From: TPA_inf: Saccharomyces
Lineage: Eukaryota
Direction of reading: 5' to 3'
DNA: 64,000 bases
NCBI GenBank assembly: GCA_000146045.2
Contig: BK006934.2
Coordinates: forward strand, 498,644 to 562,643
A program made the position numbers and the translations under genes. Positions 16,218-45,298 of the stretch are shown here, one piece after another. The notes below the pieces were generated by a model that ran no database searches, had not been told where the DNA came from, and saw only the letters and a list, made by a program, of their open reading frames with translations. Numbering within the stretch: the stretch's first letter is position 1; each line of letters starts with the position of its first letter.

Positions 16218-16261
16218 CCAAAAACAATAACAGACACAGTAATTTAGTATGCGTTTATCTC

Positions 16262-18724: not shown

Positions 18725-18740
18725 AAATTCTATTGTGTTT

Positions 18741-20070: not shown

Positions 20071-20793
20071 TGATAATGAAGGTAAACATCCCCTCCCCCC
20101 CCAAAAAAAAAAAACGAGAATTCCTCTCAGAGGATCTGTTTTTCTCTCACTTTATTCACATAGATACATACTTTTTTACAATTCCTGTTGAGTTTATTTA
20201 TTATAAGAAATATTGGATTACTATTATTATTATAGCTTATGCAAGCCATTGTGCGGCTTCTTACGCTTTTTGAAATTGTTGACCTAACAACTTGGCACAT
20301 TATTGAATTTCATAGAGACTGCTTGTAATTTAGTTGCCAAGGTATCTCGCTGGACTTTACATGTAAAATGAATGCGGCAAGATACCCAAGAGAGTTGATT
20401 ATGCCAAAAAAAAAAAATCTATAAGGATATCCCTGGTATTTTCTGAAGAATAAATTCTAGCGTAGTTCAGAAGAGGTGCAAGTACAGTATGAATAATGGT
20501 ATGCCTTCCATCATCGTGGCATACAGGTTCAGGCATGAAGAGATGATTATGTTCCCTCACCGGTCCATAATCCTGATTTAAACAGTTCATTAGTATATGT
20601 TCAGCCAACACAACAACGAGAAGCTTTGTAGTGAAAGTTTTCCACGATCTATATTTAGCATTCTAATTAGCGGCCCCAAGGGAACGTATATAAACATAAA
20701 CAAACGGCACGAACTAAAGGGGCAAATTCAAGTTAACCCTTTTACACTCAGTACATCTTCAAAGCCAGTCTTCTGTCAATGGAAGAATCCAGA

Positions 20794-23121: not shown

Positions 23122-26054
23122 TTACTTATTGCAGTAACATAATGTACAATTGAGTTCCAGTACTTCGTAGTACATTCTGATTTTATATCTCAGAGCATCC
23201 AAGGTGTTTACGCATGAATAACCAAACCATGGAGGAGTTACTTTTACCTTTTTTTAAGATATTCAGCTAGTAACTAATTGTCGGAAAAACTTAACAGGTA
23301 CAAGGCCATATTATCACGTAACAAACCTAATTTTTGTACGATATTAGTGCCCGAGAATTTCTCCGTAGCGTAATTTTCTGCGAGAATTTCTGCGCAGTGC
23401 AAAGATATGCGACCTGACACTCTTTACGAAACTTTACCCCTCCCCCACCTCCACCTGCATTTATCCCGTCAAAAAGTGTCAATCACCTGGATGCATAAGG
23501 AGGAAAAATTATTCCAAGGATGTTGGACAACGCGAATTTTGGAAGTGACTTCTCATAAGCTTCTGATCTCTACTATATTCTTGTAATTTGGTGGGGTAGT
23601 GCAGGCTTACTGTGCGATGAGCAAATCCAGCGTATTGCTCACAGCGATAGGCCTTTGAAATGATATTGTTTGAATGCAAAACGCAGAAATGATATTCAAC
23701 TTCATAATCTCATTAAACAAGATAGCATGCCAATAGAATTCCATTTTTTCCGATTCTTAGGCCATTTACAACCAAGTATCAACTTTCGTATAATTTTATT
23801 TCCATAATTATACGCAAATGCTGCAGTAGTTGCACATAGAATGATGATACGACCTAATAAAGGAAAAGGGGAATCTGTTCTGAGCTGAAAACTGATTCAA
23901 AACTCAATTTGGACACTCGGTTCGGGTGCTGGCCAGCAATAGTTTAGTGTTATCATGTCATAATCTTCCTCATAGGTTTCAATGTAATATCGATAATTAC
24001 AAAGTAGTTCCTTTTCATTTAAATTTATATGCAAGAAGATAAGAGTTGATGTAGCAGTGCACCAGTTTTGCTTTACAATTCTTACAGTTTTATGAAAAAT
24101 AATCTCCAATATGCCATGCTGAACTGGCATTCTTTTTGAGTGCAAAAGGAGGTTTTGGAAAAACAAAGTCTTCTTCTGCGTGTTACTCTGAAAATGTTGA
24201 AAAATAAGCTGAATGGGGCATTACATGTTTTCATCCAAACATGCCTTGTCAATAACGAGATTCGCGACGTATTCTTTTAGTATTCTGTTCCTTTTTTTTT
24301 TTGCTCCGCGCGCACTTGAACATCTTGCATATTTTTCTTTTCTGTTTTCATCCAGAGGTTGTGTTCTAGGACTTTCTGACGGAGGAATATCATCAAATCA
24401 TCACAATAAGATCAATTGCATGGGTTCCAGCACTTAGCCAAATGTACAAATCTTGATATTTACCGGAGACCAACCCTTAGTTTGAAGTGTGCGCTACCAG
24501 GGAATCTTCTTCGGTCATTATTTTCTATCTTCACGATAATCGATCCTCCTCCTATACGTTAATATCGACTGATATCTAAATACATCGTTGAAGAACGGCG
24601 GAAAAATACTTATTTTCAGGTTGTCTTCGTTTTCACTCACGATAGCAATATGGATCCTTTCACAGCTCCTATCACCGCTGTAGTTTTTTATGACGCTTAA
24701 TTTCCTGTTAATAAGTAAATAAGGTAAGTTGAAGGTCCTTCATACTGTGATCTGCAATAAACCACATGGCTACCGCACTTCTTGTCACTATCCTATGTGG
24801 AGAAAACCCAGAAAAAACTTTAAAGCGTGATTGAAATCAATAATTTGGCAAAGAACTAGAACCATACGCAAGAAAACCTTCCAACTTTGGCATTGTACGC
24901 AGAAATGAGACACGTTCAAAGCACAGGTCTTGAAATTTAAAAAAGTTTCTCAAAAGTTCTCCCAAACCTTCAATTTCTATTGGTATAACAGTATTCTAGG
25001 AAGAAAACAGGCGAAGAAAGTTTCTTTACTTTCTTCCTTTAATAGACTTTCATGAATATCAAATGCTGTTGTTTTCAACTAAATCAGACAAGCAAAGGCG
25101 ATTGCTAAAAGTGAACATATGGAAAATATATGGAAAAAATCTAGAGGCAACAAACGTTCGGGTTTCCTTTTAACTCCGAGAAAGAAAAATCATTAGAACT
25201 TCGTGTTAATCCTAATAGAGTTCAAATATGCTACTAGTCGTCAGAAACCTCAGTTACATGATTACACATTCTAAGACTTCACAAGTGAAAAATTTCCCGA
25301 CGTTCATAGCATGTTACGTGATCGCGCAGGATGGGACAATTAAACGATCTTTGCAGTGGAGAAGGAATAACTTCCGGTTGCAGCTACTTGTCAAACAGAA
25401 CACTGGTATGGATAAGATAATAGTCAGATCTTTTATTACTTATGAAACAATGTCAGTAACACAGCGTGTTTAACAGATAATGTTCTTTTAACAAAATTAA
25501 ATGAGGTCTTTTATTGTGTGTGTCAAGTTGACAAGCCGCCTTTATTGATAGATCCCCACTAAAAATACCAGGAAATGATGAGCTCGAGTCTTTGTGCCTT
25601 TCTCATCATGGACCATTCGCACATGCAGTGCTGCACAACAAAAGATAAATCACCAGTATTAGGTGACTTTCAAAACACTAGAATTTAGGCACTTTCAACC
25701 CAGCCCAGCGCGTAGTAAGAATAAAGTAGGGGAAAACCTTACGAAAAGCCTCTTTCTTTTTTGTAAAAAATTCTGTTTTTAATAGCCAGTTCTTTAGTGA
25801 TTACAGGTAAGAGGGTTTCATATTTTAGAAGTGCAGCCATGATGAAGCACTTTTGCTCATTTATTGCGAGAAGTTTAATAAGTAGTATGGTTCCATTTTC
25901 AAGAATCGAGGCACTGTTCCTTCCCAACCTTGGAATCATACTCCGAAAGGATTTCAAGCCGATTTAAATTCACCTGGTAACTTTCCTACGGTTTGGCCCA
26001 AGGTGATTATAATTAACTTGCGGCTTGTTTTCAGCCTGCGATCGAACCTTTTTT

Positions 26055-26295
26055 ACGCAAAAAAACCTTATTAATTAAGGTTTTGAAAATTTTCTTCTTT
26101 CCGGGAGATTTTCATGTAGCCTCGAGCTTCTGGATTCTCACGGGATTATCTCGCGTTACATTTTTTACTTTCTTCTTTCTTTTTGACTTAGGATATACAG
26201 ATGATACGTCATTGTGTCATAAAACCCGCTGTTGTGCAACAAAAGGGAAAAAGAAAAATACTCCTTTTTAGGTCTTATAAATATTTTTAGCAGCC
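26055..26295 (+). promoter_or_regulatory. Conserved flocculin upstream block, copy A, at -695 to -455 of FLO5
   Basis: A ~220-bp block (AAAACCTTATTA...TTTCTTCTTTCCGGGAGATT...TACTCCTTTTTAGGTCTTATAAATATTTTT) with about 70-75% identical copies at 32980-33200 and 39335-39595. Confidence 0.55.
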
Positions 26296-26748
26296 ATCAA
26301 GTCCGGCTTTCAAACTTAATTTCACCCTTTTTCACGGCACCCTCGAGAATTACACTTTGGTTGCATGCAGGAGTACGCGAAATGCAGCATAAGCTACACA
26401 TCTATGCGTAGATCGCTTAACCTCTAAAGGCCGTAAACTTTTATTTTGTTTTGCGCTCATTAAAACCTAGTGGGAGCTGGTAGGAAATAAGCTAGTAGCT
26501 TCTATGGATAGAATGGAAATAAACGTAGGTGTAAACACTATTGGTAGAGAAGTTCCTCTGGTCAAATTTTCATGGGAGATACGTTAAATCTTTCACAGTC
26601 TTATCGTTTTGAATCACTGGACGGTTCTGGTATTCTGCTTCATATTTCGACAAGATAATAAATATAAAAAGAGCACCCTCATGATTTCTTGCTCTGCAGT
26701 AAATTCCGCAAATGATTTTCTTTAAATTGATTAGCACCACTAAAAAAA

Positions 26749-29700
26749 ATGACAATTGCACACCACTGCATATTTTTGGTAATCTTGGCCTTTCTGGCAC
26801 TAATTAATGTGGCCTCAGGAGCCACAGAGGCGTGCTTACCAGCAGGCCAGAGGAAAAGTGGGATGAATATAAATTTTTACCAGTATTCATTGAAAGATTC
26901 CTCCACATATTCGAATGCAGCATATATGGCTTATGGATATGCCTCAAAAACCAAACTAGGTTCTGTCGGAGGACAAACTGATATTTCGATTGATTATAAT
27001 ATTCCCTGTGTTAGTTCATCAGGCACATTTCCTTGTCCTCAAGAAGATTCCTATGGAAACTGGGGATGCAAAGGAATGGGTGCTTGTTCTAATAGTCAAG
27101 GAATTGCATACTGGAGTACTGATTTATTTGGTTTCTATACTACCCCAACAAACGTAACCCTAGAAATGACAGGTTATTTTTTACCACCACAGACGGGTTC
27201 TTACACGTTTTCTTTTGCAACAGTAGATGATTCTGCAATTTTATCAGTCGGTGGTAGCATTGCGTTCGAATGTTGTGCACAAGAACAACCTCCCATCACG
27301 TCGACTAACTTCACAATCAATGGTATCAAGCCATGGGATGGAAGTCTCCCTGACAATATCACAGGGACTGTCTACATGTATGCAGGCTACTATTATCCGC
27401 TGAAGGTTGTTTACTCCAATGCCGTTTCCTGGGGCACGCTTCCAATTAGCGTGGAATTGCCTGATGGTACTACTGTTAGTGATAACTTTGAAGGGTACGT
27501 TTACTCTTTTGACGATGACCTAAGTCAGTCAAATTGTACTATCCCTGATCCTTCAATACATACTACTAGCACTATCACAACTACCACCGAGCCATGGACC
27601 GGTACTTTCACTTCTACATCCACTGAGATGACCACCATCACCGATACTAACGGTCAATTAACTGATGAAACTGTCATTGTCATCAGAACTCCAACAACAG
27701 CTAGCACCATCACAACTACCACCGAGCCATGGACCGGTACTTTCACCTCTACATCCACTGAGATGACTACTGTCACCGGTACCAACGGTCAACCAACTGA
27801 CGAAACTGTTATTGTCATTAGAACTCCAACTAGTGAGGGTTTGATTACTACAACTACCGAACCATGGACCGGTACTTTCACCTCTACATCCACTGAGATG
27901 ACTACTGTGACCGGTACCAACGGTCAACCAACTGACGAAACTGTTATTGTCATTAGAACTCCAACTAGTGAGGGTTTGATTACTACAACTACCGAACCAT
28001 GGACCGGTACTTTCACCTCTACATCCACTGAGGTTACCACCATCACTGGTACCAACGGTCAACCAACTGACGAAACCGTGATTGTCATTAGAACTCCAAC
28101 TAGTGAGGGTTTGATTACTACAACTACCGAACCATGGACCGGTACTTTCACCTCTACATCTACTGAGATGACTACTGTCACCGGTACCAACGGTCAACCA
28201 ACTGACGAAACTGTTATTGTTATCAGAACTCCAACCAGTGAAGGTCTAATCAGCACCACCACTGAACCATGGACTGGTACTTTCACCTCTACATCTACTG
28301 AGGTTACCACCATCACTGGTACCAACGGTCAACCAACTGACGAAACCGTGATTGTCATTAGAACTCCAACTAGTGAGGGTTTGATTACTACAACTACCGA
28401 ACCATGGACCGGAACTTTCACCTCTACATCCACTGAGATGACTACTGTGACCGGTACCAACGGTCAACCAACTGACGAAACTGTTATTGTCATTAGAACT
28501 CCAACTAGTGAGGGTTTGATTACTAGAACTACCGAACCATGGACTGGTACTTTCACTTCTACATCTACTGAGGTTACCACCATCACCGGTACCAACGGTC
28601 AACCAACTGACGAAACTGTTATTGTCATCAGAACTCCAACTACTGCCATCTCATCCAGTTTGTCATCTTCTTCAGGACAAATCACCAGCTCTATCACGTC
28701 TTCGCGTCCAATTATTACCCCATTCTATCCTAGCAATGGAACTTCTGTGATTTCCTCCTCAGTAATTTCTTCTTCAGTCACTTCTTCTCTAGTCACCTCT
28801 TCTTCATTCATTTCTTCCTCTGTCATTTCTTCTTCTACAACAACCTCCACTTCTATATTCTCTGAATCATCTACATCATCCGTCATTCCAACCAGTAGTT
28901 CCACCTCTGGTTCTTCTGAGAGCAAAACGAGTTCGGCTAGTTCTTCCTCTTCTTCCTCTTCTATCTCTTCTGAATCACCAAAGTCTCCTACAAATTCTTC
29001 TTCATCATTACCACCTGTTACCAGTGCGACAACAGGCCAGGAAACTGCTTCTTCATTACCACCTGCTACCACTACAAAAACGAGCGAACAAACCACTTTG
29101 GTTACCGTGACATCCTGCGAATCTCATGTGTGTACTGAATCCATCTCCTCTGCTATTGTTTCCACGGCCACCGTTACTGTTAGCGGCGTCACAACAGAGT
29201 ATACCACGTGGTGCCCTATTTCTACCACAGAGACAACAAAGCAAACCAAGGGGACAACAGAGCAAACCAAGGGGACAACAGAGCAAACCACAGAAACAAC
29301 AAAACAAACCACAGTAGTTACAATTTCTTCTTGTGAATCTGACATATGCTCTAAGACTGCTTCTCCAGCCATTGTGTCTACAAGCACTGCTACTATTAAC
29401 GGCGTTACCACAGAATACACAACATGGTGTCCTATTTCCACCACAGAATCGAAGCAACAAACTACGCTAGTTACTGTTACTTCCTGCGAATCTGGTGTGT
29501 GTTCCGAAACTACTTCACCTGCCATTGTTTCGACGGCCACGGCTACTGTGAATGATGTTGTTACGGTCTATCCTACATGGAGACCACAGACTACGAATGA
29601 ACAGTCTGTCAGCTCTAAAATGAACAGTGCTACCAGTGAGACAACTACCAATACTGGGGCTGCTGAGACAAAAACAGCAGTCACCTCTTCACTTTCAAGA

Positions 29701-29976
29701 TTCAATCACGCTGAAACACAGACAGCTTCCGCGACCGATGTGATTGGTCACAGCAGTAGTGTTGTTTCTGTATCCGAAACTGGCAACACCATGAGTCTAA
29801 CAAGTTCCGGGTTGAGCACTATGTCGCAACAGCCTCGTAGCACACCAGCAAGTAGCATGGTAGGATCTAGTACAGCTTCTTTAGAAATTTCAACGTATGC
29901 TGGCAGTGCCAACAGCTTACTGGCCGGTAGTGGTTTAAGTGTCTTCATTGCGTCCTTATTGCTGGCAATTATTTAA
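26749..29976 (+). CDS. FLO5: Flo5 flocculin, a lectin-like GPI-anchored cell-wall adhesin (YHR211W)
   Basis: 1075 aa beginning [49 protein letters not shown]-terminal PA14 mannose-binding domain, eight 45-aa tandem repeats, a Ser-rich stalk, three Cys-containing C-terminal repeats (TVTSCESxVC...[12 protein letters not shown]) and a hydrophobic GPI signal ([15 protein letters not shown]). Confidence 0.92.
27565..28655 (+). repeat. FLO5: FLO5 internal tandem array of eight 135-bp (45-aa) units
   Basis: Eight near-identical units encoding ...[45 protein letters not shown]... Neighbouring units differ at only a few codons (EM/EV, TVTG/TITG). Confidence 0.9.
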
Positions 29977-32900
29977 TAAAATTCGCGTTCTTTTTACGTA
30001 TCTGTGTATCTTTTCTTTGCTAAATATACGCTGACATGAATTATTTTTTAACTGTTTCTTCTCCATACTTTCAAATATTCAAATTGAACTAAATGATAAT
30101 TCTTGCGCTTCCTATTTTGAAAAAGTAGATATGTGTATCATAAAGAAAACGTTACTATTATTGTCTTAGGCAACAAAAATCCATGAAAAGAATTTTACCG
30201 TTATCGATACCATTGTATTTATTTTATTTATTTATTTAATTTTTTTTTTTTTTGGTTTATATCCTGCAAACAACACTTCGAATTCAATTCGATATTTCAT
30301 AAGTTACAACTAACACTTATAGAAACCGATGTATGAGTACTTATTATTAACGAGGAAAAATGGCCTATTTTGTTTAGCAATTAATGAACCATCGCCAATT
30401 TTTGCTTTAACAATTATTGCCATTTTCAGTAGTACTAACGTAAGATCTAGTGTGGTTCGCTTAGGATGTTTTTGAGTAGAAATCTGCTTACATGCCACAC
30501 GCAGTACTTGAAACTTGAAATAATGGGGATAATTAGTTATTTAAAGTATGTGCTTGTTCTTTTATATTTATTTCGAATTCTTTTGCACTAGTATTTAAAA
30601 TATCAGCAGAGGCGTAAAAGTGCACCAAAATTATTGTAAAACTACTTGCCCTAAAATTGATACTTCATACTTGACATATTCAAAAGGGGTCCAAGTATAG
30701 ATGCATCAAAAAAAAAAAAAATTATCCGATGATGAGCAAATGGTAGCTTTTCGTTCCCCAGGAAGTGTAGTAGTTCCATGAAGTCTAATGAGACTTTGGA
30801 AAAAGGTTTGTCACGAGCACCGAACTACTGTATTTTGGAATTTTGATAAACTTCAAAACGGGAACGAAGTGTTAAACTTAGATGCGGTTGTTTTAAGCTT
30901 TAAAAGAGGAAAATAATGACTGGTGATAAGAAGTCAACAACGATTCAAAGCAGGTGAATTTCCATTACGTTTCGCTTTTCAATTGAAAAAAATTTGGTGG
31001 TTATTCGTTTCTTGCTTGACCTCTTCATTTTTTATACTTCTGTGATGAGAAGCAAGTTCGAGGATTTTACGATAAAGCCTACTGGTTATATTTGTATAAA
31101 TTAGAACGTTGTCCTTATTTCTCTTTTCGAACAGTATCAAAATAAAGTTTTTGATTAGGGCTAGATTCTCTTCAAGGAAGAGATACCTCACGTCTGTAAT
31201 ATCTAAGAGCTAATGTTTCGATCGAACTTTCCTTTGCTTTTTTTCTGGATCTCATAATGTCCCACTGTATGTATGTGCCCTCGCACAGCTTTGCTCATCA
31301 TAGACATTAATCATTGGTTGTATGATAAAAATATCGCAAGAATTATTCTAACGTTCAGATTAGATTCCAGCCATATTTCTGACATTTGTTTTATTAATAA
31401 AAATTTGGCGAATGTTTTGATAACTTGATAACTGCTGGTATTTCATTGTTGAAAAGGCATGATATTAGATGCACAAAGTATATTATAACTTATGATCAGA
31501 GATATAGGAACAAAAAAAAGGGAAAATTCATATCTATATGTGAAAATACCATTATTTCCTCTCCTGTTTAATATTCTGTCCTTAATTTTCATATTACATT
31601 ATCAACTTTTGCATTTCAGTGTCCATTAAATCTTGGGACCATTTTCTCAATCTTCATGTCGTCTTTTCACACCGTATATAATATACTGGTACTATAAGTA
31701 CTAGTCGATAGATCGCAGTTGAGTCTTATTCCAACAGTTAATGATTCACTGAGCTTTCTGTTGCTGTAGACTTTCTGAGGCATCGTCGCTCTCTTCTATG
31801 TGATGCTACAACGGAACTAGGCTTCTTATATATCGTGGTCCTACAAGATCTTGGTATCTCGTTTGCTTACTTTGAAGCTTCACTGATATATAGTATTTAA
31901 GCCACTTTTATGTTCATGGATAATCGTAATTGTACTACGCTGGTACCAGTTATGAACCCTATCAAATCATCATTGAACACTGCTATTTTTAACTAATCAA
32001 GATATGTATGCGGCGTACTTTATAATTTCACGACACTATTGAAAGCAAACTAAAAATCAAGTAAATACCTATCCAAGTTGCGGGCTCTGGATTTATGTGG
32101 CCTTAAATTTTCGACCTATGGTTCACTATTCAATACGAGAAAACCAAAATTAGGTACAAGTACTGATTGCGTTCGTGATTTGAAAAGCAGCGTTAAAAGA
32201 TTACAAGATTTTGCGTTTCCAGGCCGACACTTAACTTTAAGGTCTCGACTTGGTAACATGAGTTGCCAAAAGTTTTTTTCTCCTATCTGAATATGGGGAA
32301 CCGGAATCTGTCTTTGACCTGACTTTCAAATTGTTGCATATGTAAAAAAAAAACAGAAGAAATATTATCTTCTCCTTCTAGCGATGCAAAAGGATTCATT
32401 ACAAATCGTCGCAAAGGCTGACAAGTTGCAGTATATTCACATTGCTTATTTGAAGTACGTTTGTATACACATCGATAGTATTCATTAACACCACAACTGC
32501 TGTGTATACTATGTCAAACAGCACAATAAAGCCCGTCATTTTCGTACCCGCTCATTTCCAATAGGTATCTAAACTTACAAATGTGGTACACTACTTCGAA
32601 TTCATTAATCGATATTGAATGCTAAAAAGTCTGCGATTTCTTCCTCAACGTTCAAAAATCTCATCCAAGGCATAATCCCACATATTGAAGATCGCTACCA
32701 ATTGTTACAGGCGAACTGAAGTTTTGGAAATGAGCTTGTACTTAGTAAATTTCTCTTTGCTTGCATCTTTTTCTTCCATGCCAAAAAATAAAAGATACTC
32801 ATTTTAAAAACGCAGCCATATTGACTAAGTAAGTAATCATAATACTATGAGTAATTTTTGAGTACTGTGCTCATTTACTAGCTGCTTTTCTGAGAAAGAT

Positions 32901-32979
32901 CCTCGATAATCAATTCCAGGTTAGTGGGGCGCTTCTACGGCCTCTTCTAACCAATTGTTCCCCGTGAGTTGCTTTCTCT

Positions 32980-33200
32980 GAAAACCTTATTATACATTAG
33001 AGTTATAAGAAAATTTTCTTTTTCCCGTAGATTAACTTGCAGTGCCGAACTTCTAGATGTCACACCAGACCGTTTGACACCGCCATTTTCCTTCCTTTTC
33101 GGAAAAATGTGCCGATAAATGGTAAGACGCGACGCCACTGCTACGAATATTACGCTTATGATGAAGCAAAAGGAAAAAGCAAGTTCCCCTTAAATTCGTA
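32980..33200 (+). promoter_or_regulatory. Conserved flocculin upstream block, copy B, orphan
   Basis: Homologous to 26055-26295 and 39335-39595 (TTTCTTTTTCCCGTAGATTAACTTGCAGTGCC...GATGAAGCAAAAGGAAAAAGCAAGTTCCCCT). It lies 3 kb downstream of FLO5 and about 600 bp upstream of the decayed flocculin relic. Confidence 0.5.
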
Positions 33201-33789
33201 TAACTGTTTCATCAATCTTTAGTTCTGGCATTTGAAAGTTAATTAAACTTTTCTTCGTGGTTTCTACAGGAGTTCTGCATGTGCGTAATTCAAAGCCTGT
33301 GAAGGAAAAAGTATTGTCCTAAACAACGGTCGTAGAATACGTCAACTGTAGTTTAAAATATTTTCTGGCTCTACTCGGTGCGATAGGTCTGGCTCTTTTC
33401 TATTTACTTTTGTTTGGAGTTGTTGAGGCCGATACCCGTCTAGATGTAAATATGAAATAACAGTTCGAGGTTTTATTACGAGAATGAAAAGGGTAATGGA
33501 TTGGAGCATGTGTAAATGTCAATAGCAGAAAAAATTTACCGCAAATTGTTTCGTAGTCTTATCTTCATCGGACACTCAAGGGTTGCATAATTTTTACCCA
33601 AAGGAACAGTATACTTTTTTGATAAAAAAATCTTGTTACCTATACAGTATTGCAAGCATTTTCAGAAACTCGTCTTTTGAGTTCTAAATGCATCATACAA
33701 CAACAACAACAATTTCTTATTACTGTGTCCTTTTGGGATTTTTCAGCCTTCCTAGCTTACCCAAAATAGCCTCTCAAGGTGAAAAAACC

Positions 33790-34530
33790 ATGCCTGCAAG
33801 CGGATCTAAGGATGAGTAGCTAGATTACAATAAATCCTGAATTTTCTCTGAGTGTCAACTTTGTCATCGCTTGTTAAAGGGCTACTACGCTGAAAAAGAA
33901 CCTGAACTCTGTTAATAGGTTGAAGATTTTATGACTTGGTATACTATTCCATACGGCTGCTCTCCTGATTGCGGTGGGTCATTGCTATAACAGTAAAATC
34001 AAGGAAGATAACAGGAAGAGTAACTTTAGTACAATAAATCTGTTGTCTCCCGAGGATTATAATTGTTCGGCTTTCACACTAAGTTGAAAAGGGGGACTCA
34101 GGAAATGACAGGGTACGTTTTAGTTTCTCCAAATAAATCTTCCACACCCAGCTTCAATGTGGTAAACGGAGGAAAGTTGATTAATTGATGTTGGCACTTA
34201 TATTTAACTGATGTAGAGAAGAACAACATACTACTAACGTCACAGTCAATTGTGCCAGTTTTCCAATCAAGTATTTCGAGATAATGTAAAAGTAATTGAT
34301 ATATGTTCGTACTGGTTTCCCAATTTCCGGGAAAAACTATGTACATGGGTGCAATTCCTTGTGGTTATTTCCTTTTAGGTTATATTGCCAACCACATCAT
34401 AGTACTATTTGCGGTCACTTCAGAAGATATGTTTGCTCCTTTGATCATGATATAGACCAGGCCAACTGTACCGCTTCAGGCTTCAAAGCATTAGGAATAA
34501 GCACCACTATTACACAACCATAGAGCTACT
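33790..34530 (+). pseudogene. Highly decayed relic of a flocculin N-terminal (PA14) region
   Basis: The 75-aa ORF at 34296-34523 translates ...FRRYVCSFDHDIDQANCTASGFKALGISTTITQP. This aligns with FLO5 ...[36 protein letters not shown], the PA14-domain end through the start of the first repeat, at about 70% DNA identity over 34420-34530. Weaker similarity to the FLO start region (CATGCCTGC...GTCAACTTT) appears around 33800-33880. Multiple stops and frameshifts. Span and spacing mirror the FLO5 ATG-to-repeat distance. Confidence 0.5.
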
Positions 34531-37500
34531 CTTACTGTCACGTAGGTAAAACACTTGCTACTACACACACTCGTAGTGACTCATCTGACTATATTGCCGG
34601 TTGTTAAGAGGCACCAGTTAAGCACGCCATCAAGGGTACCGAATAATCTCTTCTGTATCAAGTATTCTACCTTTATGTCTGACCCACGTATTATGTGGAG
34701 CAATTACGTATTTTTCTCATATCAGCTTTGTTTTTACTCAACTTTGATATCTTAGAGAAACAGATCTTGATGTTACAGCAAGGTCAGGAAAATATTTTGA
34801 CAAAAACATACTAGTTTCATCCTTAGTAGTTGATTCTATGAATGCTGTACTTGAAAATATTGTTCATAAAATCCATAAGTTTTACCAACGGTATAATATC
34901 CTGCTATTAAATCTGCAATTGCTTTTGCGAAAAGAAGGAAAACATGCAAAACAAAAGCAAAAAAAAATTGGCACCCCAATTTCTTATAATATAATAATAT
35001 AACGGAAGTACACCATGCTTTCAATAATAAGATGTTTCCTGAAAAGGGCAACTATCTGACTAGTTCAGAGCCATGCAAAAGTTAAGGATGAAAATGCCAA
35101 ATAAGAAGATATTACGGAGTACATTCATTTCAAAAAGAAGAATGTATACTGCTTAGATAAGAAGATCAAGTTTTTATATTTCCGACCAAATAAGCCATCG
35201 AAAACTTTTGATGCACCAAACACCGTTCTTGAGAGCCAAGCACAGATGCAATTGTTCTGCCCTTCTTCCAAATTATGAATTGTGCATCATATCGTAAGGC
35301 CAGCCACATAAAAAAAAGGAGCAAAAAACTCAGTATACAGGCGAATATCCATCATACAGTCTAGCTGCCCTCACTACTTCCAAAAAAATGGGCTAGTGTT
35401 GTACGGTTTATGCCATATATCTAGAGTTAGCATAACTATGCACTACCGCTTTTCGAACAAAAAGTTTGCGAAACCTAGTTCATTGAATATGACTTACCCA
35501 AAATGGATACCAAGATCCTAATAATAAAGTCAATAACTTGAATTTTAGGTGCCATTATTTCCAACAATCATTATAGGCTAACTCTACCAGCAGACTAGAA
35601 TACCGTTCTTCTAGTTGAGCACATGGTCAAAATAGTCAATAAAAAACGCCCAGAAATGGCTGTAAATTAGTGTTTGTAGTACACAAAATAATTTCCTAAT
35701 TCCTTCCAAATGGGGTTTTCAAAAAGCTGACTCACGTAATTGATCAATACTTCACTAAAGAAGAATCATATGAATAAAACTAAAATCAACACTAACTGAG
35801 AGACTTAGCGGCCAAAGCTTAATCATCATTACATAGAGTATATGAAGGGAGTAAGTGAATATGCAAGGGTGGGAAACGGCAAAGCATTTTTATGCAAAAA
35901 GCGTATTTACAAATCCCGTAAACTCATGATGTGAATTTTGTAACCAGCTTTAGCTGAGATTATTTCTTTTGCAAAAGAAATATTCAATAAATTAACAATT
36001 TTCAAATAAATTACCAATCAATGGTCGATAACTTGCAAGAGAGATATCATCATTTGGCTTTTGTGATAAATTTACAAAACGTAATGTTGTATCGAGATAT
36101 ATTGAGTTACAAGTTTTCGTCTCTTTTTCCGAAGCGCCAGACTCCCGTATAAAAAATAAGGTTTATAGCGGGCATTATGCGTAGATCAGGACTTAAATTT
36201 TTCATTGCAGAAGTCCAATTTCAGACTCAGTATGGTTTGTTGTAGTGCTGGTGTAAAAGATGGTGTTATTACTTAAGACTGATTTGGTTGCTCAGGTATT
36301 TCATTCAATAAAATTGTGAAAGAGAACCTGGAATATAGAATGGAAATATATATCCTGCTACTAACCCCAATGGAAGGTGACGATCACTTCTTGTGCGTTC
36401 CAATCCCAGTTTTTGAATGTGCGAGTGGAAAAATTCTAGAGGAACAAATTGATATTTTCAAATCAGAATTCATCAAATATATGTACTCTGTAAAAACCAA
36501 GGATGTGATGAAGTTGAGATATTGTCTTTATGGGAAATTGACTTCTTTGTTTAATATGAATAATGCAATTTTACTCCTCAGCTCAAGTAGTGTAAAGATT
36601 CAGTAGCCGTCATCAAATAGACTAAAAATTAAAAAATAAGATTCAATGTGGTATGATAATGATAGATGAGAAGAAATTGCAAGAAAACGAATAAATACCT
36701 TGTCTCTTTGCACTGAATATCTTAAAGGACATACAGTCGCAATAACGTCTACTCATTGGTGTGTGTCAAAAACAGTACGTTTATTATCTGGACAGCCAAA
36801 AAATAAGATCTATTCAAACATGGAATATAGCGTATTTTTATTTAATCACGGTACAATGGAGATATTTGCATGCCTATAGAAACAAGTAATAGTTATCATA
36901 TTATTTTCTAGATTTTGTCACTGAACTTTTCCACTAATGAATCCTATCAAAATTATATATCCAATATGGCTGCATTCCCAACTAAATATTAAAATGCCGC
37001 TAAGTATAAAATGTCTCCGCATCGGTAAAAAGCATTACAAATGCGTATTATACTAGCGAGAAAAAAGTATAAGTATCAATGCCAATCACCCTCTGACCAT
37101 AAACTTTCTAAACATGAATAATAAAGGTGTTGAGAGTTATTATCCTAATTGATCAATTAATTTGAAGCAAAGTTATTATGTTAAAGAAAAAGGGATGTCA
37201 CAATCCTAACTATAATTTTTGCACTATACTCTGTAGGCGTACAAAATGGTTTGTACCGACTATATTCTCTTTATTTTTGACAATCCTTTACGATATATGA
37301 TTAAGAATACCATGTTATTTTTATGAAAATCTGTGATTTTTTTGTTTTCATACACTTTTTATTTTTGTCACGTAGTGCACTTTGATTAATACAAAAAAAA
37401 ATGCTGCAAAAGCATCGACTACATAAATTCATTAGGACGCATTCCTCATTACCACCTGGGTCTAATTTTTATTTTGAAATTGATATTATTCTTTATATGA

Positions 37501-39334
37501 TGAGGTAAAAAGCATTATATTCGTTGTAAACTCATATACTTATCCTCATTTTAGGCACCATCAGGGACTAAGGGCTAAAGTATCAGAGCCGCATTTCAAC
37601 AGTGTACAGAGATTTTAGAAACATTATCACGCACTGCCTTTTGCTTTGTTTACCCGTAATGAGTATACAGTGGATTTTCTGGTGCTAAAGCATATTGCCC
37701 TTTCGGCAATACTTGATGCCCTAAACATTTTCATCCTGGAACATACGAGTAAGAGCACATTTATGTGCCTATATTCCTCGTTTTTTACTGGTGCTGAATT
37801 TCTTATTTTCCACAGATAACAATCATGTTAATAAATTATGCACTGTGCTAATTTTTCAATTAAGGTTCTATTACCCCTCTATCACCGACAGAAACACGTA
37901 ATGATGTGTTATTTCCATTATAATTCCGTAAGAATGGTGTTTATAGGTAGTCTAAAGAACGTGCATCAGAGAAGAATGACTGTCGCAAAAAATGACTATT
38001 CTTTACCTTTTCAAACTTAACTGAGATAGTTATCTCTATTATTACCAGTGGCACACACGCGAACTACATCACTCACCACTATCGTCTTAGGAACTCAAGA
38101 TTTTATAGTAATGCAGCCGAAGACATTCAAGTCCTGAGAGAAAATGTAGACATTTTAAGAAAAGTACCGGAAATAAAGCACATGTAAAGCATTGAGCTCT
38201 GTACTCTATAAAAATTAGCTGCATTCAAACAACAATGTTTGAAATTTTTGCAAAAGTTATTGAAAAAGATTGCTGTTTTCAGCCTTGTTCAGATCATGTC
38301 TCAAAAATGAGAAACTGGAACTCTCATAATCAGTACCTCGTATTTTTTTTTCCTTATAGTTTCGTTATTAAAAATTTTTTTGCTGCTAATTTAAGTACGC
38401 TTTTGGTCATAAATGCTACCCACCAGTTGAATTATTGACATGATTAAAATACATTTCAGAACTTTACGGATTAAAAACTTTAAAGAACCTTTCAATCCAT
38501 GTTGCTGGAGGGCCATGAATCCACGAATTACAGCAAAAGAAGACAGTAACTACTTAGGGTTCAATAATTACTTGCATAAACACACACTAACAACCAAATC
38601 GTACTAAAATTTGCAATTAACAAAACTCCATCATATCACGCTGAATTATGTAGGGCTTCTTAATGCAATAGGTTGCCTGAATTTTGCTTACTCGTGCTGC
38701 CGGGAACACTTAGCAGTTGGGAGGCCGTTTCTCCCATATATTTCATAATTTTCTGTCCTTCTTAGAGTAGGATGCTGAAAATCAAAAGAAGACCGTCAAT
38801 AGGACCAGATTTTGTGGGTCAATTTTGGGCCAGACACATGATACCCTAGGAAGTTTAACGGTATACAACTCAAGGACGAGGAGTATTCGGAAACTACCGG
38901 TTTTTAACAAGCTGCAAATTTCCAGTAGCTGTTTTGGTTGCGACTACGGATAAAAATTCATACTTTAGGAAGTGAAGCAAGATAAAAAATCATGCTGCAT
39001 CCTAATTCGTGAAGTTTGTTAGGAATATTATTGTAAACAAGGAACCGTTTCAGTAAACTTGCTCTCTACTCTTCTAAGCTGTAATTTAAAAAAAGCGATA
39101 AAACAATGATTTTGATTATCTGCAACTTCTGGAAACTCGAGATACTACGCTAGACGAGATACCTATTAATTGTTTTCCTAAAAAATCAGGAACAGTTCCT
39201 GGCAGCTTTCGGCTCCTTCTTGTTCTGGAAAGGATCTTCAAATCCGCTTCCACGTAGCAGTCCTCGCTACGACTTCTTCTGAAGTATTTTGATTTTTGGC
39301 TGCATTTACCTTTTATTGCCGAAAATCTTATTTT

Positions 39335-39595
39335 CCAAGAAAAAAGCTTATTTTGCATTAAGTTTAAAAAATTTCTTCTTTCCCGTAGATTGACTTGCAG
39401 CGTCAAAATTCCGGAGGCCTCACGAGATTTTTTGACATCGGTTTTTGACATCTCTTTTTCCTTCCTTTTTCTTTCTTTTCCTGCGCACGCCGATAAAGAA
39501 GTAGTACAACAGACAACGTCAAAATGATCCTCTTGTGATGAAGCAAAAGAGGAAGAGTATACTCCTTTTCCGCTTGTACAAATATTTTTTTTGAT
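39335..39595 (+). promoter_or_regulatory. Conserved flocculin upstream block, copy C, at about -760 to -500 of the YHR213W-B/YHR213W pseudogene
   Basis: TTTCTTCTTTCCCGTAGATTGACTTGCAGCGTC...GATGAAGCAAAAGAGGAAGAGTATACTCCTTTTCCGCTTGTACAAATATTTTT, homologous to copies A and B. A dubious minus-strand ORF (39116-39610, YHR212C-like) overlaps it. Confidence 0.5.
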
Positions 39596-40098
39596 AATAA
39601 AATTTGGCACTTCAGAGCTTATCGTATCTTCTCCCGGAGTTCCTCAAGACTTATACTTCAGCCCGTTTAGGAATGCATAAAAGCAAATAGGATTCGTTAC
39701 AACTGCTGCAGGACTCTTTAGGACTGCATCAAGGTAAGCCTCGCTGCACCTAAACGCAAAATGTGGTTGTAACCTTTTTAATTTTTTTCTTGAACTTGTT
39801 GAGTCGTAATAAATCGTTTCTGGGAAGTGGAAGGTAATAATGTAATGGAATCGGCGTTACTCGCATGTGCAGATATCAGCGACAAAAAGTGTTGTAGGGA
39901 CGTTTCGATACCAAAATTTCCTAAATACAGCGCAGGAACATCACTACGCTAAACAAATCGTAGCGCATACATCTGATCGAAAAAAGACAGTTCCCAAAAC
40001 AATGACATATGAAGAGACCAGCATCAAAATTTTCATCATTAACAGCATGGCTAAAAGTTATTGTTTAATATACCCATACCTGATTGACGAACCAAGAA

Positions 40099-41280
40099 AT
40101 GCCTTATCACTATTTATTTTTGGCACTCTTCACCTACCTGGCCACGTCCAATGTTGTTTCAGGAAGTACACAAGCATGCCTGCCAGTGGGCCCGAGGAAA
40201 AATGGGATGAATGTCAACTTTTATAAATACTCATTACTGGATTCAACAACGTATTCCTACCCGCAATATATGACTTCTGGATATGCCTCGAATTGGAATT
40301 AGGTTCCGTTGGCGGACAGACGGATTTCTCAATTGACTACGATCTTTCTTGTGTTATCTCTTCAGGAACTTTTAAATGTGCTCAATCAGATGCTTATGGA
40401 AACTGGGGATGCAGAGGTCATAGTGAATGTTCAAAATAGCCAAGAAAGACCTATTGGAGTACTGATTTACTTGGTTTCTTACTATCCCAAAAAACGCTAC
40501 TCTAGAAATGACAGGTTACTTTTTACCACCACAAACAAGTTCTTACACGTTCAGGTTTGCTAAGGTCGATGACTCTGCAATTCTATCAGTCGGTGGTAAC
40601 GTTGCGTTCGAATGTTGTGCACAAGAACAACCTCCAATTACATCGACGGATTTTACAATCAATGGTATTAAGCCATGGCAAGGAAGTTTGCCTGATAACA
40701 TCGGAGGGACTGTCTACATGTATGCAGGCTACTATTATCCGCTGAAGGTTGTTTACTCCAATGCCGTTTCCTGGGGCACGCTTCCAATTAGCGTGGAATT
40801 GCCTGATGGTACTACTGTTAGTGATGACTTTGAAGGGTACGTTTACTCTTTTGACGATGATTTAAGTCAGTCAAATTGTACTATCCCTGATCCTTCAAAA
40901 CATACTACTAGCATCGTCACAACTACTACCGAACTGTGGACTGGTACTTTTACTTCTACATCTACTGAAATGACCACCGTCACCGGTACTAATGGTCAAC
41001 CAACTGACGAAACCGTTATTGTTGCCAAAGCTCCAACCACTGCCACCTCATCCAGTTTGTCATCATCTTCTTCAGAACAAATCACCAGCTCTATCACGTC
41101 TTAGCATCCAATTATTACTCCATTCTATCGCAGCAATGGAACTTCTGTAGTTTCTTCCTCAGTCATGTCTTCCTCGGTCATTTCTTCTTCTGCAACGACC
41201 TCCACTTCTACATTCTCTGAATCATCTAAATCATCCGTCATTCAAACCAGTAGTTCCACCTCTGGTTCTTCTGAGAGCGA
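40099..41280 (+). pseudogene. Flocculin pseudogene; the YHR213W-B (40099-40302) and YHR213W (40508-41104) fragments belong to one disrupted FLO-like gene
   Basis: A 67-codon piece MPYHYLFLALFTYLATSNVVSGSTQACLPVGPRKNGMNVNFYKYSL... ends at TAG. Homology then continues out of frame (40309-40563), and 40508-41104 encodes the PA14 remainder plus exactly one 45-aa repeat unit ([46 protein letters not shown]). A TAG interrupts the Ser-rich stalk at 41102, and similarity runs on to about 41280 before it is lost. Confidence 0.85.
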
Positions 41281-42600
41281 AACAATCTTAGTGATTGCTG
41301 GCATGTCATTAGCGACAAGACGCTTATTACCGTAGTAGCCCCCCAAGGCAAACATCTCTTTATCAGTAATATCCAAAGCTGTTCAACTTCTCGAATTGGC
41401 CCAGGAAAAGAGCATTGGGGCGGCAACTAACTCTGGCATACTTACAGTTTCTGCTCTTGACAGCGCTAAAAAAGGGCTTGTTTTGTAATGCCCGGTTCGC
41501 AATTCTACAAGTACCACGCACTAGCTGCTAAAAGTGTCTAACCTTGCGAACAACTCTGGACTTTCTTATGAGAATCCCATCGTCAAGAAACAAAATTATA
41601 CAGACAGGCGTAAATGTAGCTCGTAAGCGCCTGATCAAGTAAGCCAAATGCGCTAACTTGAGGAAATATAGCCATCTAAATCTCTGCAACATGCCAATTC
41701 GCACGTGACTTGAAACTATGGAAAGTGTCTAGAAGATTACCAAGAACCACGTTATTTGAGAGAGGATGGCAAGGTGACGACAATCACACCAAGACCACAT
41801 TTTGGGTGCGCCTGGAAGCAAGACCTGAGAAACTGGGCCAAAATATTCAAACCAAGCATAAGATAGTTGGAGGTAGGAATACACTATCTAATCTGTGCTG
41901 ATGAAATGCTGGCGAAAACGGGCGATGTAGTGGTACAGAAGGTGCCGGTTATCCGTTTGTCCGTTTTTCTTCATTTTTTTTTTGTTTTTCCCTTTTGTCT
42001 TTTGCACCGCTTATATATGGGTATGAAACAAGTTCAAGAATTTATAATGGAACCCAAAGGTTCAGTCTTTGTAGTTCGAGCGACATTGCGCGTTTCCTTA
42101 GAAAACGCTGGAAAGATATTCTTTAACGAGACGGAGTAATTCTCGTCAGGAATAGGATGTTGATTGATTTTTGCTGTAGTTATATAGCAGGGACCCACGG
42201 AAGAGAGCGAGCGCCTTCTTTCACAGGGACTTTTGTCAGCCACGTCTCCGCGGAAAACAATTGCCGTCCGCGTCGCAGTGAGATTACGCAGCCGTGCGCT
42301 TCAGGGACAGAAAAGAAGCATTTCGCGGCTACGGAGAAACAGTGCACTAACTCTCTCGAGGGTAGCCGCAAAGATTTCTTGTCTCTTCCATTAGGACATA
42401 GCTATCTTTTTCTTTTCTGTTTTTGGCGTATGATCTGTTCTGAGCCAAAGTTATAGAACATTGCTTGAATAAGCACCTCACAGAGTAGGGATTGTATAGA
42501 AAGTAGCTGAGCGTCTGCCCACGTAACAAACAATCTTGCCCCTTCCCCGCTCTTGTTTTCGCGTGCCTCTTCTACAATAATCTGGCCAGGCTAAATCGCG

Positions 42601-42645
42601 TTCTGCTGCTGCTGCTGCTATTGTTATTGTTGTTGTTGTTGTTTT
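42601..42645. repeat. Compound trinucleotide repeat (CTG)5 (TTG/TTA)n
   Basis: ctgctgctgctgctgctattgttattgttgttgttgttgtt, intergenic and about 360 bp upstream of YHR214W. Confidence 0.9.
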
Positions 42646-43007
42646 GGCCAATTGCTTATGTGTTGGTCTGCAAATTAGCACCTCGTTCCCTGTTGGCAAA
42701 CGCGCGCGTACAAGCCTTACAGGGCTTGAGAATGTTCTTCGTAGAAATGCATGCACAAAAATTTTGATCTAGCACACCATCGGTCTCTGTAGCTTCGGGC
42801 TCTATAGCTATGGGTTAGGAGTCCGTGAGTAGTAACAAGAAGAAGTATATAAAAAGCAGGTAAATCGTACTTCAATATGCTTCATTGTCACTGGATCGTC
42901 ATATTCACTCTTGTTCTCATAATAGCAGTCCAAGTTTTCATCTTTGCAAGCTTTACTATTTCTTTCTTTTTATTGGTAAACTCTCGCCCATTACAAAAAA
43001 AAAAGAG

Positions 43008-43619
43008 ATGTTCAATCGTTTTAACAAATTCCAAGCTGCTGTCGCTTTGGCCCTACTCTCTCGCGGCGCTCTCGGTGACTCTTACACCAATAGCACCTCC
43101 TCCGCAGACTTGAGTTCTATCACTTCCGTCTCGTCAGCTAGTGCAAGTGCCACCGCTTCCGACTCACTTTCTTCCAGTGACGGTACCGTTTATTTGCCAT
43201 CCACAACAATTAGCGGTGATCTCACAGTTACTGGTAAAGTAATTGCAACCGAGGCCGTGGAAGTCGCTGCCGGTGGTAAGTTGACTTTACTTGACGGTGA
43301 AAAATACGTCTTCTCATCTGATCTAAAAGTTCACGGTGATTTGGTTGTCGAAAAGTCTGAAGCAAGCTACGAAGGTACCGCCTTCGACGTTTCTGGTGAG
43401 ACTTTTGAAGTTTCCGGTAACTTCAGTGCTGAAGAAACTGGCGCTGTCTCCGCATCTATCTATTCATTCACACCTAGCTCGTTCAAGAGCAGCGGTGACA
43501 TTTCTTTGAGTTTGTCAAAGGCCAAGAAGGGTGAAGTCACCTTTTCTCCATACTCTAACGCTGGTACCTTTTCTTTGTCAAATGCTATTCTCAACGGTGG
43601 TTCTGTTTCCGGTTTGTAA
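43008..43619 (+). CDS. YHR214W, the N-terminal 203-aa product of a putative GPI cell-wall protein gene
   Basis: ATG at 43008, MFNRFNKFQAAVALALLSRGALG signal peptide, a Ser-rich region, then TAA at 43617. Confidence 0.75.
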   Translation: MFNRFNKFQAAVALALLSRGALGDSYTNSTSSADLSSITSVSSASASATASDSLSSSDGTVYLPSTTISGDLTVTGKVIATEAVEVAAGGKLTLLDGEKYVFSSDLKVHGDLVVEKSEASYEGTAFDVSGETFEVSGNFSAEETGAVSASIYSFTPSSFKSSGDISLSLSKAKKGEVTFSPYSNAGTFSLSNAILNGGSVSGL

Positions 43620-44903
43620 CGTAGAGACGACGATGAAGGCTCTGTAAATAACGGTGAAATCAACCTAGACAATGGAAGTACCTATGTTATCGTTGAACCA
43701 GTTTCTGGAAACGGTACAATCAACATCGTCTCTGGTAACCTATACTTGCACTACCCTGACACCTTTACTGGCCAAACTGTTGTATTCAAGGGTGAAGGTG
43801 TTCTTGCCGTTGACCCAACCGAAACCAACGCCACTCCTATTCCTGTTGTTGGCTACACCGGTAAGAACCAAATTGCCATTACCGCTGACATCACTGCTCT
43901 TTCTTACGACGGTACTACTGGTGTCTTAACTGCAACCCAAGGTAACAGACAATTCTCTTTTGAAATTGGTACTGGATTCTCTAGTTCTGGCTTCAGTGTC
44001 TCCGAAGGAATCTTCGCAGGCGCCTACTCATATTACCTAAACTATGACGGTGTCATCGCTACAAGCGCCGCATCCACATCCGCATCCACTACCTCTGGTG
44101 TTGTCTCTACTGCCACTGGTTCAGTCACTTTATCCTCTAACGCTTCTACCACCGTCTCTTCTACGATCTCTTCTAGCGCCCCAGACTCAATAATTCCTTC
44201 ATCTAGCGCCTCCATCTCTGGTGTCTCAAACTCCACTACAGCATCTGGTTCAATCGCTTCTACTGCTTCCACCGCTTCCACTACTTCTACTGCATCCGCT
44301 GCATCCGCCACCAGCTTCACCTCAGGTTCCGCTTCTGTCTACACTACTACATTAACTTACTTGAATGCCACAAGTACAGTCGTGGTTTCCTGTTCAGAAA
44401 CAACCGACGCTAGCGGTAACATTTACACCATTACCACAACTGTCCCATGCTCATCTACCACTGCCACCATCACATCTTGTGACGAAAACGGATGCCATGT
44501 TCCAGCACCAACTGCTACCGACGCAACTGCAACCGTTTCCTCCAAATCATACACCACTGTTACTGTTACTCACTGTGACAACAATGGCTGTAACACCAAG
44601 ACTGTCACTTCTGAATGTTCTAAAGAAACTGCAGCAACCACCATTTCTCCAAAATCATACACTACTGTTACCGTTACTCACTGTGACGACAACGGCTGTA
44701 ACACCAAGACTGTCACTTCCGAGGCTTCCAAACAAACATCATTGGCCACTAGCACAGTCACCAAGTCTGCTGCTCCAACTTCTCATACTGCTGCTTCCAG
44801 CACCTTCACTGGTATTGTCGTTCAATCCGAAGGTATGGCTGCTGGTTTGAGAACCAATGCTTTAAGTACTTTGGCAGGTATTTTCATCCTTGCTTTTTTT
44901 TAA
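43008..44903 (+). pseudogene. Nonsense-interrupted secreted GPI-anchored Ser/Thr-rich cell-wall protein gene; one 631-codon frame with a single internal TAA at 43617-43619
   Basis: The 385-codon open frame at 43746-44903 is in the same frame as YHR214W, and the frame stays open from 43620. It encodes a Ser/Thr-rich stalk, two Cys repeats ([25 protein letters not shown] / [25 protein letters not shown]) and a C-terminal hydrophobic GPI-type signal ([23 protein letters not shown]). The YHR214W-A-like ORF at 44365-44850 lies in another frame and looks spurious. Confidence 0.6.
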
Positions 44904-44966
44904 AATGAGTGCGTAACCGTACTTTCCTAAAAATAACTAAGTAGAAAGTATTTTAATATATAAACG

Positions 44967-45298
44967 TGAGATATATGTGGGTAATTAGATAATTGTTGGG
45001 ATTCCATTGTTGATAAAGGCTATAATATTAGGTATACAGAATATACTAGAAGTTCTCCTCGAGGATATAGGAATCCTCAAAATGGAATCTATATTTCTAC
45101 ATACTAATATTACGATTATTCCTCATTCCGTTTTATATGTTTCATTATCCTATTACATTATCAATCCTTGCACTTCAGCTTCCTCTAACCTCGATGACAG
45201 CTTCTCATAACTTATGTCATCATCTTAACACCGTATATGATAATATATTGATAATATAACTATTAGTTGATAGACGATAGTGGATTTTTATTCCAACA
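44967..45298 (-). repeat. Ty1 3' LTR (delta)
   Basis: Near-identical to 50663-50994; the complement of TGAGATA...TGTTGGAATA. Confidence 0.9.

Follow-up and report, generated by a model that had tools for sequence, protein, structure and literature searches.

An apparently unannotated relic of a flocculin gene head between FLO5 and YHR213W in Saccharomyces

Open-access sources describe three FLO pseudogenes, YAL065C, YAR061W/062W and YHR213W (PMC5345705). A flocculin gene remnant on chromosome VI, REMYFR054C (REMFLO13), was reported by Dietrich, Magwene and McCusker (PMC12157680). Furthermore, 124 intergenic relics, enriched near chromosome ends, were counted in S288C by Lafontaine, Fischer, Talla and Dujon (2004), as cited in PMC9661399, while a survey of tandem arrays found none composed of one coding sequence and a relic in the same strain (PMC2822764). 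Here we describe a further degraded flocculin sequence, which lies approximately 3.7 kb downstream of FLO5, between FLO5 and the YHR212C/YHR213W unit, in a stretch that contains no long open reading frame (ORF). It was analysed within a window of 64,000 nucleotides (contig BK006934.2, positions 498,644 to 562,643 of the forward strand, assembly GCA_000146045.2), and positions given below are those of the window unless a locus is named. Our data indicate that positions 32981-34523 very probably represent the dead remnant of an entire FLO-type gene head, formerly the middle unit of a three-unit array, which decayed and was carried along by block duplication. An earlier note, made from the sequence of this region by itself, had proposed that a flocculin N-terminal domain survives at this place as a heavily degraded relic, and three lines of analysis (tblastn, a family-specific profile and frameshift-aware alignment against controls) agree with that proposal.

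The N-terminal domain and its lesions

The N-terminal domain of Flo5 (Flo5A) is a PA14-type, calcium-dependent mannose lectin. When the whole window was searched with FLO5 by tblastn, just two matches were obtained outside FLO5 and the YHR213W unit: positions 34392-34472 match amino acids (aa) 238-264 (E 5.9e-4) and positions 34063-34185 match aa 126-166 (E 0.061). The two matches are collinear and nearly isometric, with a spacing of 329 nt compared to 336 nt in FLO5. We built a hidden Markov model (Flo-HMM) from 18 Saccharomyces Flo N-terminal domains and searched it against the 2557 six-frame stop-to-stop fragments of the window. It matched 34296-34520 (E 3.7e-5) and 34063-34185 (E 5.6e-4), and nothing else in the window besides FLO5 and YHR213W. 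The earlier note had suggested a profile search as a check, and its outcome depends on the profile, as the Flo-specific model detects the relic while the generic Pfam PA14 model does not.

Since the reading frames are broken, we used a custom frameshift-aware Smith-Waterman aligner (BLOSUM62, gap penalties -11/-1, frameshift penalty -12). It aligned FLO5 aa 126-306 with positions 34063-34589 at a score of 159, with 57 of 182 residues identical and six frame changes. The controls scored far below the 155-159 reached by the relic: 120 dinucleotide-preserving shuffles gave a mean of 35 (sd 4, maximum 47), 86 natural 1.2-kb segments of the window, taken on both strands, scored 51 or less, and scores of 41 and 35 were obtained when the relic was read on its reverse strand and when the FLO5 protein was reversed, respectively. 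A tblastn limit of E 0.01 and shuffled controls had been set beforehand in the earlier note as a test, and the best E-value obtained with FLO5 lies below that limit while the shuffles remain far below 159. A global nucleotide alignment of 33688-34523 with the FLO5 domain scored 36, compared to -183 +/- 19 for shuffles. Furthermore, the conceptual protein of the relic matches Flo domains of S. eubayanus, S. kudriavzevii and S. cerevisiae in tblastn searches at E 1e-20 to 1e-25. Overall, the similarity to the Flo N-terminal domain is statistically solid.

We considered whether AT-rich intergenic DNA might resemble FLO5 by chance or through its composition, as the nucleotide identity is low, the coding region gives no significant blastn match and Pfam recognises nothing in it. 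The probability of such a coincidence is negligible. The alignment score lies approximately 30 standard deviations over the dinucleotide shuffles and is threefold that of the best natural control, two independent standard tools return the same collinear fragments with E-values below 1e-3, the reverse-strand and reversed-protein controls stay at noise, and a promoter block lies at the correct distance upstream. A chance match is thus refuted by the shuffled, natural, reverse-strand and reversed-protein controls.

The relic begins with an ATG. The ORF list contains a 43-codon frame that opens with this ATG and has a hydrophobic N-terminus (33688-33819), and FLO5 aa 2-37 align with the start of the relic at a score of 45 under default penalties (shuffles 27.8 +/- 4.3, p approximately 0.003). 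Under lenient penalties, FLO5 aa 2-117 align with 33709-33997 at a score of 74 (p approximately 3e-4). Past a +1 shift, the N-terminus of the relic reads CLQADLRMS where FLO5 has CLPAGQRKS. Given the ATG and the N-terminal alignment from 33688, the relic covers the entire N-terminal domain, 33688-34523, and starts approximately 100 nt before position 33790, where the earlier note had placed its beginning. Between the equivalents of aa 117 and 126 it carries an insertion of approximately 13 codons relative to FLO5. A perfect (ACA)5 microsatellite at 33697-33712 corresponds to a run of five threonines just after the start codon (MHHTTTTT).

At the other end, the ORF list holds the 75-codon frame (34296-34523) on which the earlier note had drawn; its start codon is TTG, not ATG, and its C-terminal end reads ...FRRYVCSFDHDIDQANCTASGFKALGISTTITQP, as that note had it. 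The TAG at 34521 falls exactly at the junction of domain and repeat, the point where the first repeat would start. Some details of the earlier description have to be changed. The DNA identity over 34420-34530, put there at about 70%, is 66% when measured (70 of 106 aligned columns), and its pairing of YVHGCNSLWLFPFRLYC with a FLO5 segment was in the wrong register, the homologous stretch being IYVRTGFQFPGKTMY at approximately 34299-34343, across a +1 shift at 34321. A degenerate repeat-like stretch had also been suspected after 34530, for which alignment controls, Tandem Repeats Finder (TRF) and base composition gave no support: TRF found no tandem repeats after the relic, and the composition of FLO repeats (strong C-over-G skew and higher G+C) is absent downstream of it. 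Searches with Rfam, for tRNA genes and for the ARS consensus returned nothing at the relic.

The lesions are numerous. Across 33688-34523 the three frames contain 16, 16 and 18 stop codons, in accordance with the earlier observation that no frame is free of stops. Along the alignment to FLO5 we counted at least 14 frameshifts and two internal in-frame stops, of which six frameshifts and one stop fall in the well-aligned C-terminal two-thirds, and approximately eight further frameshifts and one stop in the N-terminal third. Nucleotide identity to FLO5 in aligned codons is 51-56%, and by codon position it is 51-65% (position 1), 64-66% (position 2) and 36-39% (position 3), where 26% would be expected by chance; amino acid identity to the FLO5 domain is approximately 31-35%. 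In the alignment, for which the FLO5 numbering was verified, D160-D161 of Flo5 are replaced by N-G, N224 by G and W228 by C. We take D160/D161 (the DcisD motif) and the CBL2 residues N224 and W228 to be calcium- and mannose-binding in the Flo5A structure. The relic shows 42% amino acid identity at the 88 residues that do not vary among the 18 Flo domains, compared to 37% at variable positions, and this lack of residual enrichment fits long neutral decay. We examined and rejected a role of the relic as a recombination donor for FLO genes, since 51-56% identity would be far under what homologous recombination needs.

A functional FLO gene has an uninterrupted ORF, a signal peptide, a lectin domain, Ser/Thr-rich tandem repeats and a GPI-anchor C-terminus, and of these the relic presents a signal-peptide-like start. 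What it does present is homology to a real gene together with stops and frameshifts that leave no ORF, as expected of a gene relic. Judged by its sequence, the relic cannot encode a flocculin. We also asked whether the region might still be coding, either for a short peptide from the 75-codon frame or the 43-codon ATG frame or for a product of programmed frameshifting. The ATG-initiated 43-codon ORF with its hydrophobic N-terminus speaks for this; the 75-codon frame has no ATG, however, reading through the domain would require at least 14 changes of frame, a collection of 5.8 billion proteins that includes S. cerevisiae assemblies contains no such protein, and no gene is called at any of the 11 annotated loci. 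Continued coding is therefore very improbable. The same collection contains no match to the conceptual translation at E 0.01 or below and no intact annotated orthologue.

We next compared the relic with the FLO subfamilies. Its frameshift-aware scores are 138-159 with FLO1/5/9-type domains, 156 with S. eubayanus Flo10 and 151 with P0017/18-type domains, and lower with the more divergent P0023 (122) and with the distant PA14 protein P0036 (48, which is noise). Given these near-equal subfamily scores, the relic is a Saccharomyces FLO-type domain of no particular extant subfamily. Such equidistance might mean that the ancestor of the relic was an old FLO paralogue that evolved on its own and kept its function for long, instead of a FLO5-like tandem copy that died early. 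An origin of this kind is somewhat less likely than not. The insertion of approximately 13 codons, the periodicity of identity over codon positions (2 > 1 > 3) and the well-kept promoter block described below would fit a long functional life. Against this, invariant residues are kept no better than variable ones, so that no trace of a functional past is left, the periodicity can stem from the FLO5 lineage and from optimisation of the alignment, and the searched database contains no intact relative that is closer than FLO5.

The conserved upstream block

Plain blastn between the relic and FLO5 detects the promoter block as the one significant similarity, the coding part being too diverged. The block of the relic is 74.7% identical over 79 nt to that of FLO5 (26062-26135, E approximately 1e-6) and 76.5% identical over 102 nt to that of the YHR213W unit (39342-39440, E 6e-13), and it is the sole significant nucleotide similarity among the three upstream regions. 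The distance from the end of the block to the ATG is 606 nt in the relic (33082 to 33688), 602 nt in FLO5 (26147 to 26749) and 659 nt in YHR212W-A; in a FLO-type promoter the conserved block is expected some 600-700 nt before the ATG. The geometry of FLO5 is thus repeated in the relic, as the earlier note had pointed out from an orphan block some 600 bp upstream. Furthermore, the core of the block is found approximately 900 nt upstream of S. kudriavzevii FLO10 (L016:9060-9190) and at -758 to -701 of a chromosome I FLO1-type gene (L017:5243-5300), and a four-way alignment of blocks has 45 invariant columns. In S. eubayanus and S. uvarum, the FLO genes examined have no detectable copy of the block upstream.

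A DNase-I-hypersensitive Cyc8-Tup1 site of approximately 100 bp was mapped at about -700 of FLO1 by Fleming et al. (PMC4316177). From its position and size, the block is presumed to be the homologue of this nucleosome-free site. We hypothesized that the block of the relic (32981-33082) might still be under selection even though the coding part is dead, either as an orphan nucleosome-free Cyc8-Tup1 site that helps to keep subtelomeric chromatin repressed or as the promoter of a non-coding transcript, a proposal that is compatible with the decay of the coding part as described above. Its position agrees with that of the mapped site, as does that of the block of the FLO1-type gene. When FLO5, the YHR213W unit and S. 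kudriavzevii FLO10 are compared, 56 nucleotides of their blocks are invariant; the relic block also retains 45 of these (80%), where the blocks of intact genes themselves retain 76-80%, while the coding part keeps 62% of the nucleotides at codon positions 1 and 2 of family-invariant residues (Fisher p = 0.013). However, the block was found through its similarity, which introduces an ascertainment bias, the uncertain coding alignment depresses coding identity, and the sample of 56 columns is small. A late death of the gene would have left less time for decay, gene conversion could have refreshed the block, and the block is undetectable upstream of the S. eubayanus and S. uvarum genes examined. 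We regard a working block as unlikely. If it were true, a gene would have lost its product yet kept a cis-regulatory job for the FLO1 and FLO5 subtelomeres.

Over the full upstream regions (25960-26760, 32880-33700 and 39240-40110), MAFFT alignment gave 49-53% identity in each pairwise comparison and revealed a second conserved patch at approximately alignment columns 301-420. The three promoters are thus equidistant though the coding domains of FLO5 and the YHR213W unit are 81% identical. Either conversion or selection has homogenised the coding regions of FLO5 and the YHR213W unit, or promoters turn over much faster than ORFs.

The FLO promoter block of the YHR213W unit is directly covered, on the opposite strand, by YHR212C (identical to YAR060C). 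The block of the relic is likewise overlain by a homologous open frame of 63 codons (32947-33138, minus strand), and ...LQVNLRE..NFL... is common to this frame and YHR212C. From their sequences, YHR212C and the 63-codon frame look less like genes than like frames that happen to be open across a conserved cis-element. A second FLO promoter block (L017:1222-1326), 76.6% identical over 107 nt to the FLO5 block, was seen 4.7 kb upstream of the chromosome I FLO1-type gene. No flocculin coding relic follows it, frameshift-aware scores there being noise, and it may be the last trace of another lost FLO unit.

Copies of the relic and history of the array

The features of the region are collected in Table 1. 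FLO5, the first unit, is readily recognised by Pfam in its domain (PA14 1e-31, GLEYA 7e-20). The third unit, YHR212W-A/YHR213W, is a frameshifted fragment approximately 10 kb past FLO5, with 60-88% amino acid identity to FLO5 in three frames (tblastn) and 81.5% nucleotide identity over 932 nt (blastn). The gene-free gap from FLO5 to YHR212C measures 9.1 kb and is unusually long.

Table 1. Features of the FLO5 region, by position in the window
Feature	Positions	Strand	Evidence or remark
FLO5 upstream block	26060-26147	+	blastn
FLO5, intact ORF (1075 aa), array unit 1	26749-29976	+	ORF list
Conserved FLO-family upstream block of the relic	32981-33082	+	blastn
Decayed proximal promoter and 5' leader of the relic	33083-33687	+	three-way MAFFT; patchily alignable to the FLO5 and YHR213W-unit promoters
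Relic of the whole flocculin N-terminal (PA14-type) domain, FLO5 aa 1 to ~282	33688-34523	+	tblastn, Flo-HMM, frameshift-aware alignment
Relic start: ATG and signal-peptide-like N-terminus MHHTTTTTISYYCVLLGFFSLPSLPKIASQG	33688-33819	+	frameshift-aware alignment
Open fragment 1, best preserved, LFGFHTKLKRGTQEMTGYVLVSPNKSSTPSFNVVNGGKLI, FLO5 aa 126-166	34063-34185	+	tblastn, Flo-HMM
75-codon open frame; ancestral frame only in last ~50 codons (FLO5 aa ~232-282)	34296-34523	+	ORF list
Dubious ORF YHR212C	39116-39451	-	
FLO array unit 3 (known pseudogene)	39340-41104	+	tblastn, blastn
Unit 3 upstream block	39340-39440		inside dubious ORF YHR212C
YHR212W-A-like	40099-40302	+	
YHR213W-like	40508-41104	+	

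We used the YHR212C protein as a handle to find further copies and obtained ten S. cerevisiae loci, nine of them chromosome I-like and one chromosome VIII-like and adjoining a 1075-aa FLO gene. The search returned matches in S. cerevisiae only. The relic is present in all ten loci, with 99.7-100% identity over 1.9 kb, and with one more locus (L014) there are eleven further copies (L001-L010 and L014) that are 99.6-100% identical and share the lesions. The chromosome I paralogous block and other strains, where the earlier note had suggested looking for it, thus carry the same relic. Among the S. cerevisiae copies compared, which represent a small sample of strains, no intact allele was found. 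Since the copies are near-identical and have the same lesions, the relic was probably already dead when the block spread.

The relic sits within one continuous block of 15.9 kb (29116-44970) that is at least 99.6% identical throughout. It starts in the 3' part of FLO5, takes in the relic as well as the YHR213W unit and ends beyond YHR213W; this is the duplication block of chromosomes I and VIII that has been documented (PMC2728529). In one strain the block occurs at both ends of a 221-kb chromosome I-like contig (L007/L008), and at L014 it is found on a 1.06-Mb contig, 3-23 kb away from the end. Going by these arrangements, the block is a mobile subtelomeric block in some strains. In strain GCA_030036195.1 (L017:7315-13314), the chromosome I FLO1-type gene is followed by different sequence, including fragments of MFS-transporter genes, and not by the relic block; only approximately 1 kb after the FLO1-type gene matches the window, at 91% identity. 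This arrangement suggests a presence/absence polymorphism of the block distal to FLO1.

Outside S. cerevisiae, no second relic was found at the FLO loci examined in S. eubayanus, S. pastorianus, S. uvarum and S. kudriavzevii. In S. eubayanus-type chromosome I (L011/L012/L015, approximately 11000-21000), the FLO1-like gene is followed by genes for an amidohydrolase and a short-chain dehydrogenase and by a Hyphal_reg_CWP gene, and no relics of these two enzymes were found in the S. cerevisiae window. The region distal to FLO1 is completely remodelled between S. cerevisiae and S. eubayanus.

These observations can be accommodated in the following history. FLO5, the gene now seen as the relic and the present YHR212W-A/YHR213W pseudogene would once have formed a head-to-tail FLO array that arose by tandem duplication, and the head of the middle gene would have comprised the promoter block, a start codon, a signal peptide and a PA14-type lectin domain. 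This copy would have been inactivated long ago. Substitutions and small indels would then have erased its reading frame, its ligand-binding residues and the generic signature of its domain, and the Ser/Thr-rich repeats and GPI-anchor end 3' of the domain would have been deleted or eroded beyond detection. The dead relic would later have been carried passively in a block of approximately 16-20 kb that was copied among subtelomeres, on chromosomes I and VIII and, in some strains, at other ends.

Several points weigh against this history. The segments of FLO5 that encode the repeats, the middle and the C-terminus score at shuffle level throughout 34524-38600; because no trace of repeats or of a C-terminus was found, a full-length ancestral gene is assumed, not shown. 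The N-terminal third of the domain was detected by the custom aligner alone, where its significance is modest and the count of frameshifts depends on the penalties chosen. Pfam PA14 (PF07691) and GLEYA (PF10528) were not found in the corrected translation or in the two open fragments, with nothing at E 10 or below. It is mildly odd, furthermore, that the upstream block is better preserved than neutral decay of the whole unit would predict. Finally, S. eubayanus chromosome I and its S. pastorianus copy, which represent the one other species examined at this locus, contain no relic, second PA14 sequence or block after the FLO1-like gene, and since the S. eubayanus locus has unrelated genes and no relic, both the tandem origin and the age of the relic are unanchored.

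Comparison with known pseudogenes and relics

No gene is called on the relic in NCBI-annotated assemblies and no mention of it was found in the open-access literature, in agreement with the earlier note, which had called it unannotated. It is also absent from the eight remnants catalogued in PMC12157680, where nothing distal to FLO5 is given. Judged on the open-access literature, the relic adds a member, new or at least unannotated, to the FLO pseudogenes and gene relics. It would be the fourth pseudogenic FLO locus, with at least two copies per genome, beside YAL065C, YAR061W/062W and YHR213W. Furthermore, the FLO5 and FLO1 loci would once have been arrays of at least three flocculin genes, which would be direct evidence for birth-and-death turnover of subtelomeric adhesins. 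The comparison also delimits a promoter module of approximately 100 nt that is common to FLO5, the FLO1-type gene, S. kudriavzevii FLO10 and both dead units, and places YHR212C and YAR060C as open frames over this module. Our understanding of flocculation is unchanged by these data; their value lies in annotation and evolutionary history, and their interest is modest.

The closest described system is the YHR212W-A/YHR213W unit with its paralogues YAR061W/YAR062W, 5.6 kb further along. Like the relic, it is a disabled FLO N-terminal domain distal to FLO5 or FLO1 (PMC5345705), and it too stands behind the same conserved upstream block within the same duplicated block of chromosomes I and VIII (PMC2728529). 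The two differ in their degree of decay. The YHR213W unit is young, with 81% nucleotide identity to FLO5, two frameshifts, one stop and a retained repeat, and is still recognised by the Pfam PA14, GLEYA and Flocculin models, whereas the relic has no Pfam match, repeat or annotation. With Flo5A itself the relic is collinear from aa 1 to approximately 282, through the signal peptide, the CLPAG motif, the LFGF..EMTGY core and the C-terminal motif (YVCSFDHDIDQANCT in the relic), but it lacks an open frame, and DcisD, N224 and W228 are gone.

REMFLO13 resembles the relic in that both are multiply disrupted FLO1/5/9/10-like genes, each in a gene-free gap of approximately 9 kb that it partly explains; the relic thus accounts for part of the 9.1-kb gap between FLO5 and YHR212C as REMFLO13 does for its gap on chromosome VI. 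REMFLO13 is approximately 3.9 kb long and belongs to the conserved central region of its chromosome, and in other Saccharomyces species as well as in introgressed strains the gene is intact. Unlike it, the relic has approximately 0.84 kb of recognisable coding sequence plus the promoter, no intact orthologue of it was found in our searches, and it is subtelomeric, distal to FLO5. Finally, the relic is of the same kind as the relics counted by Lafontaine and colleagues, namely an intergenic, frame-broken residue of similarity to a neighbouring or paralogous gene.

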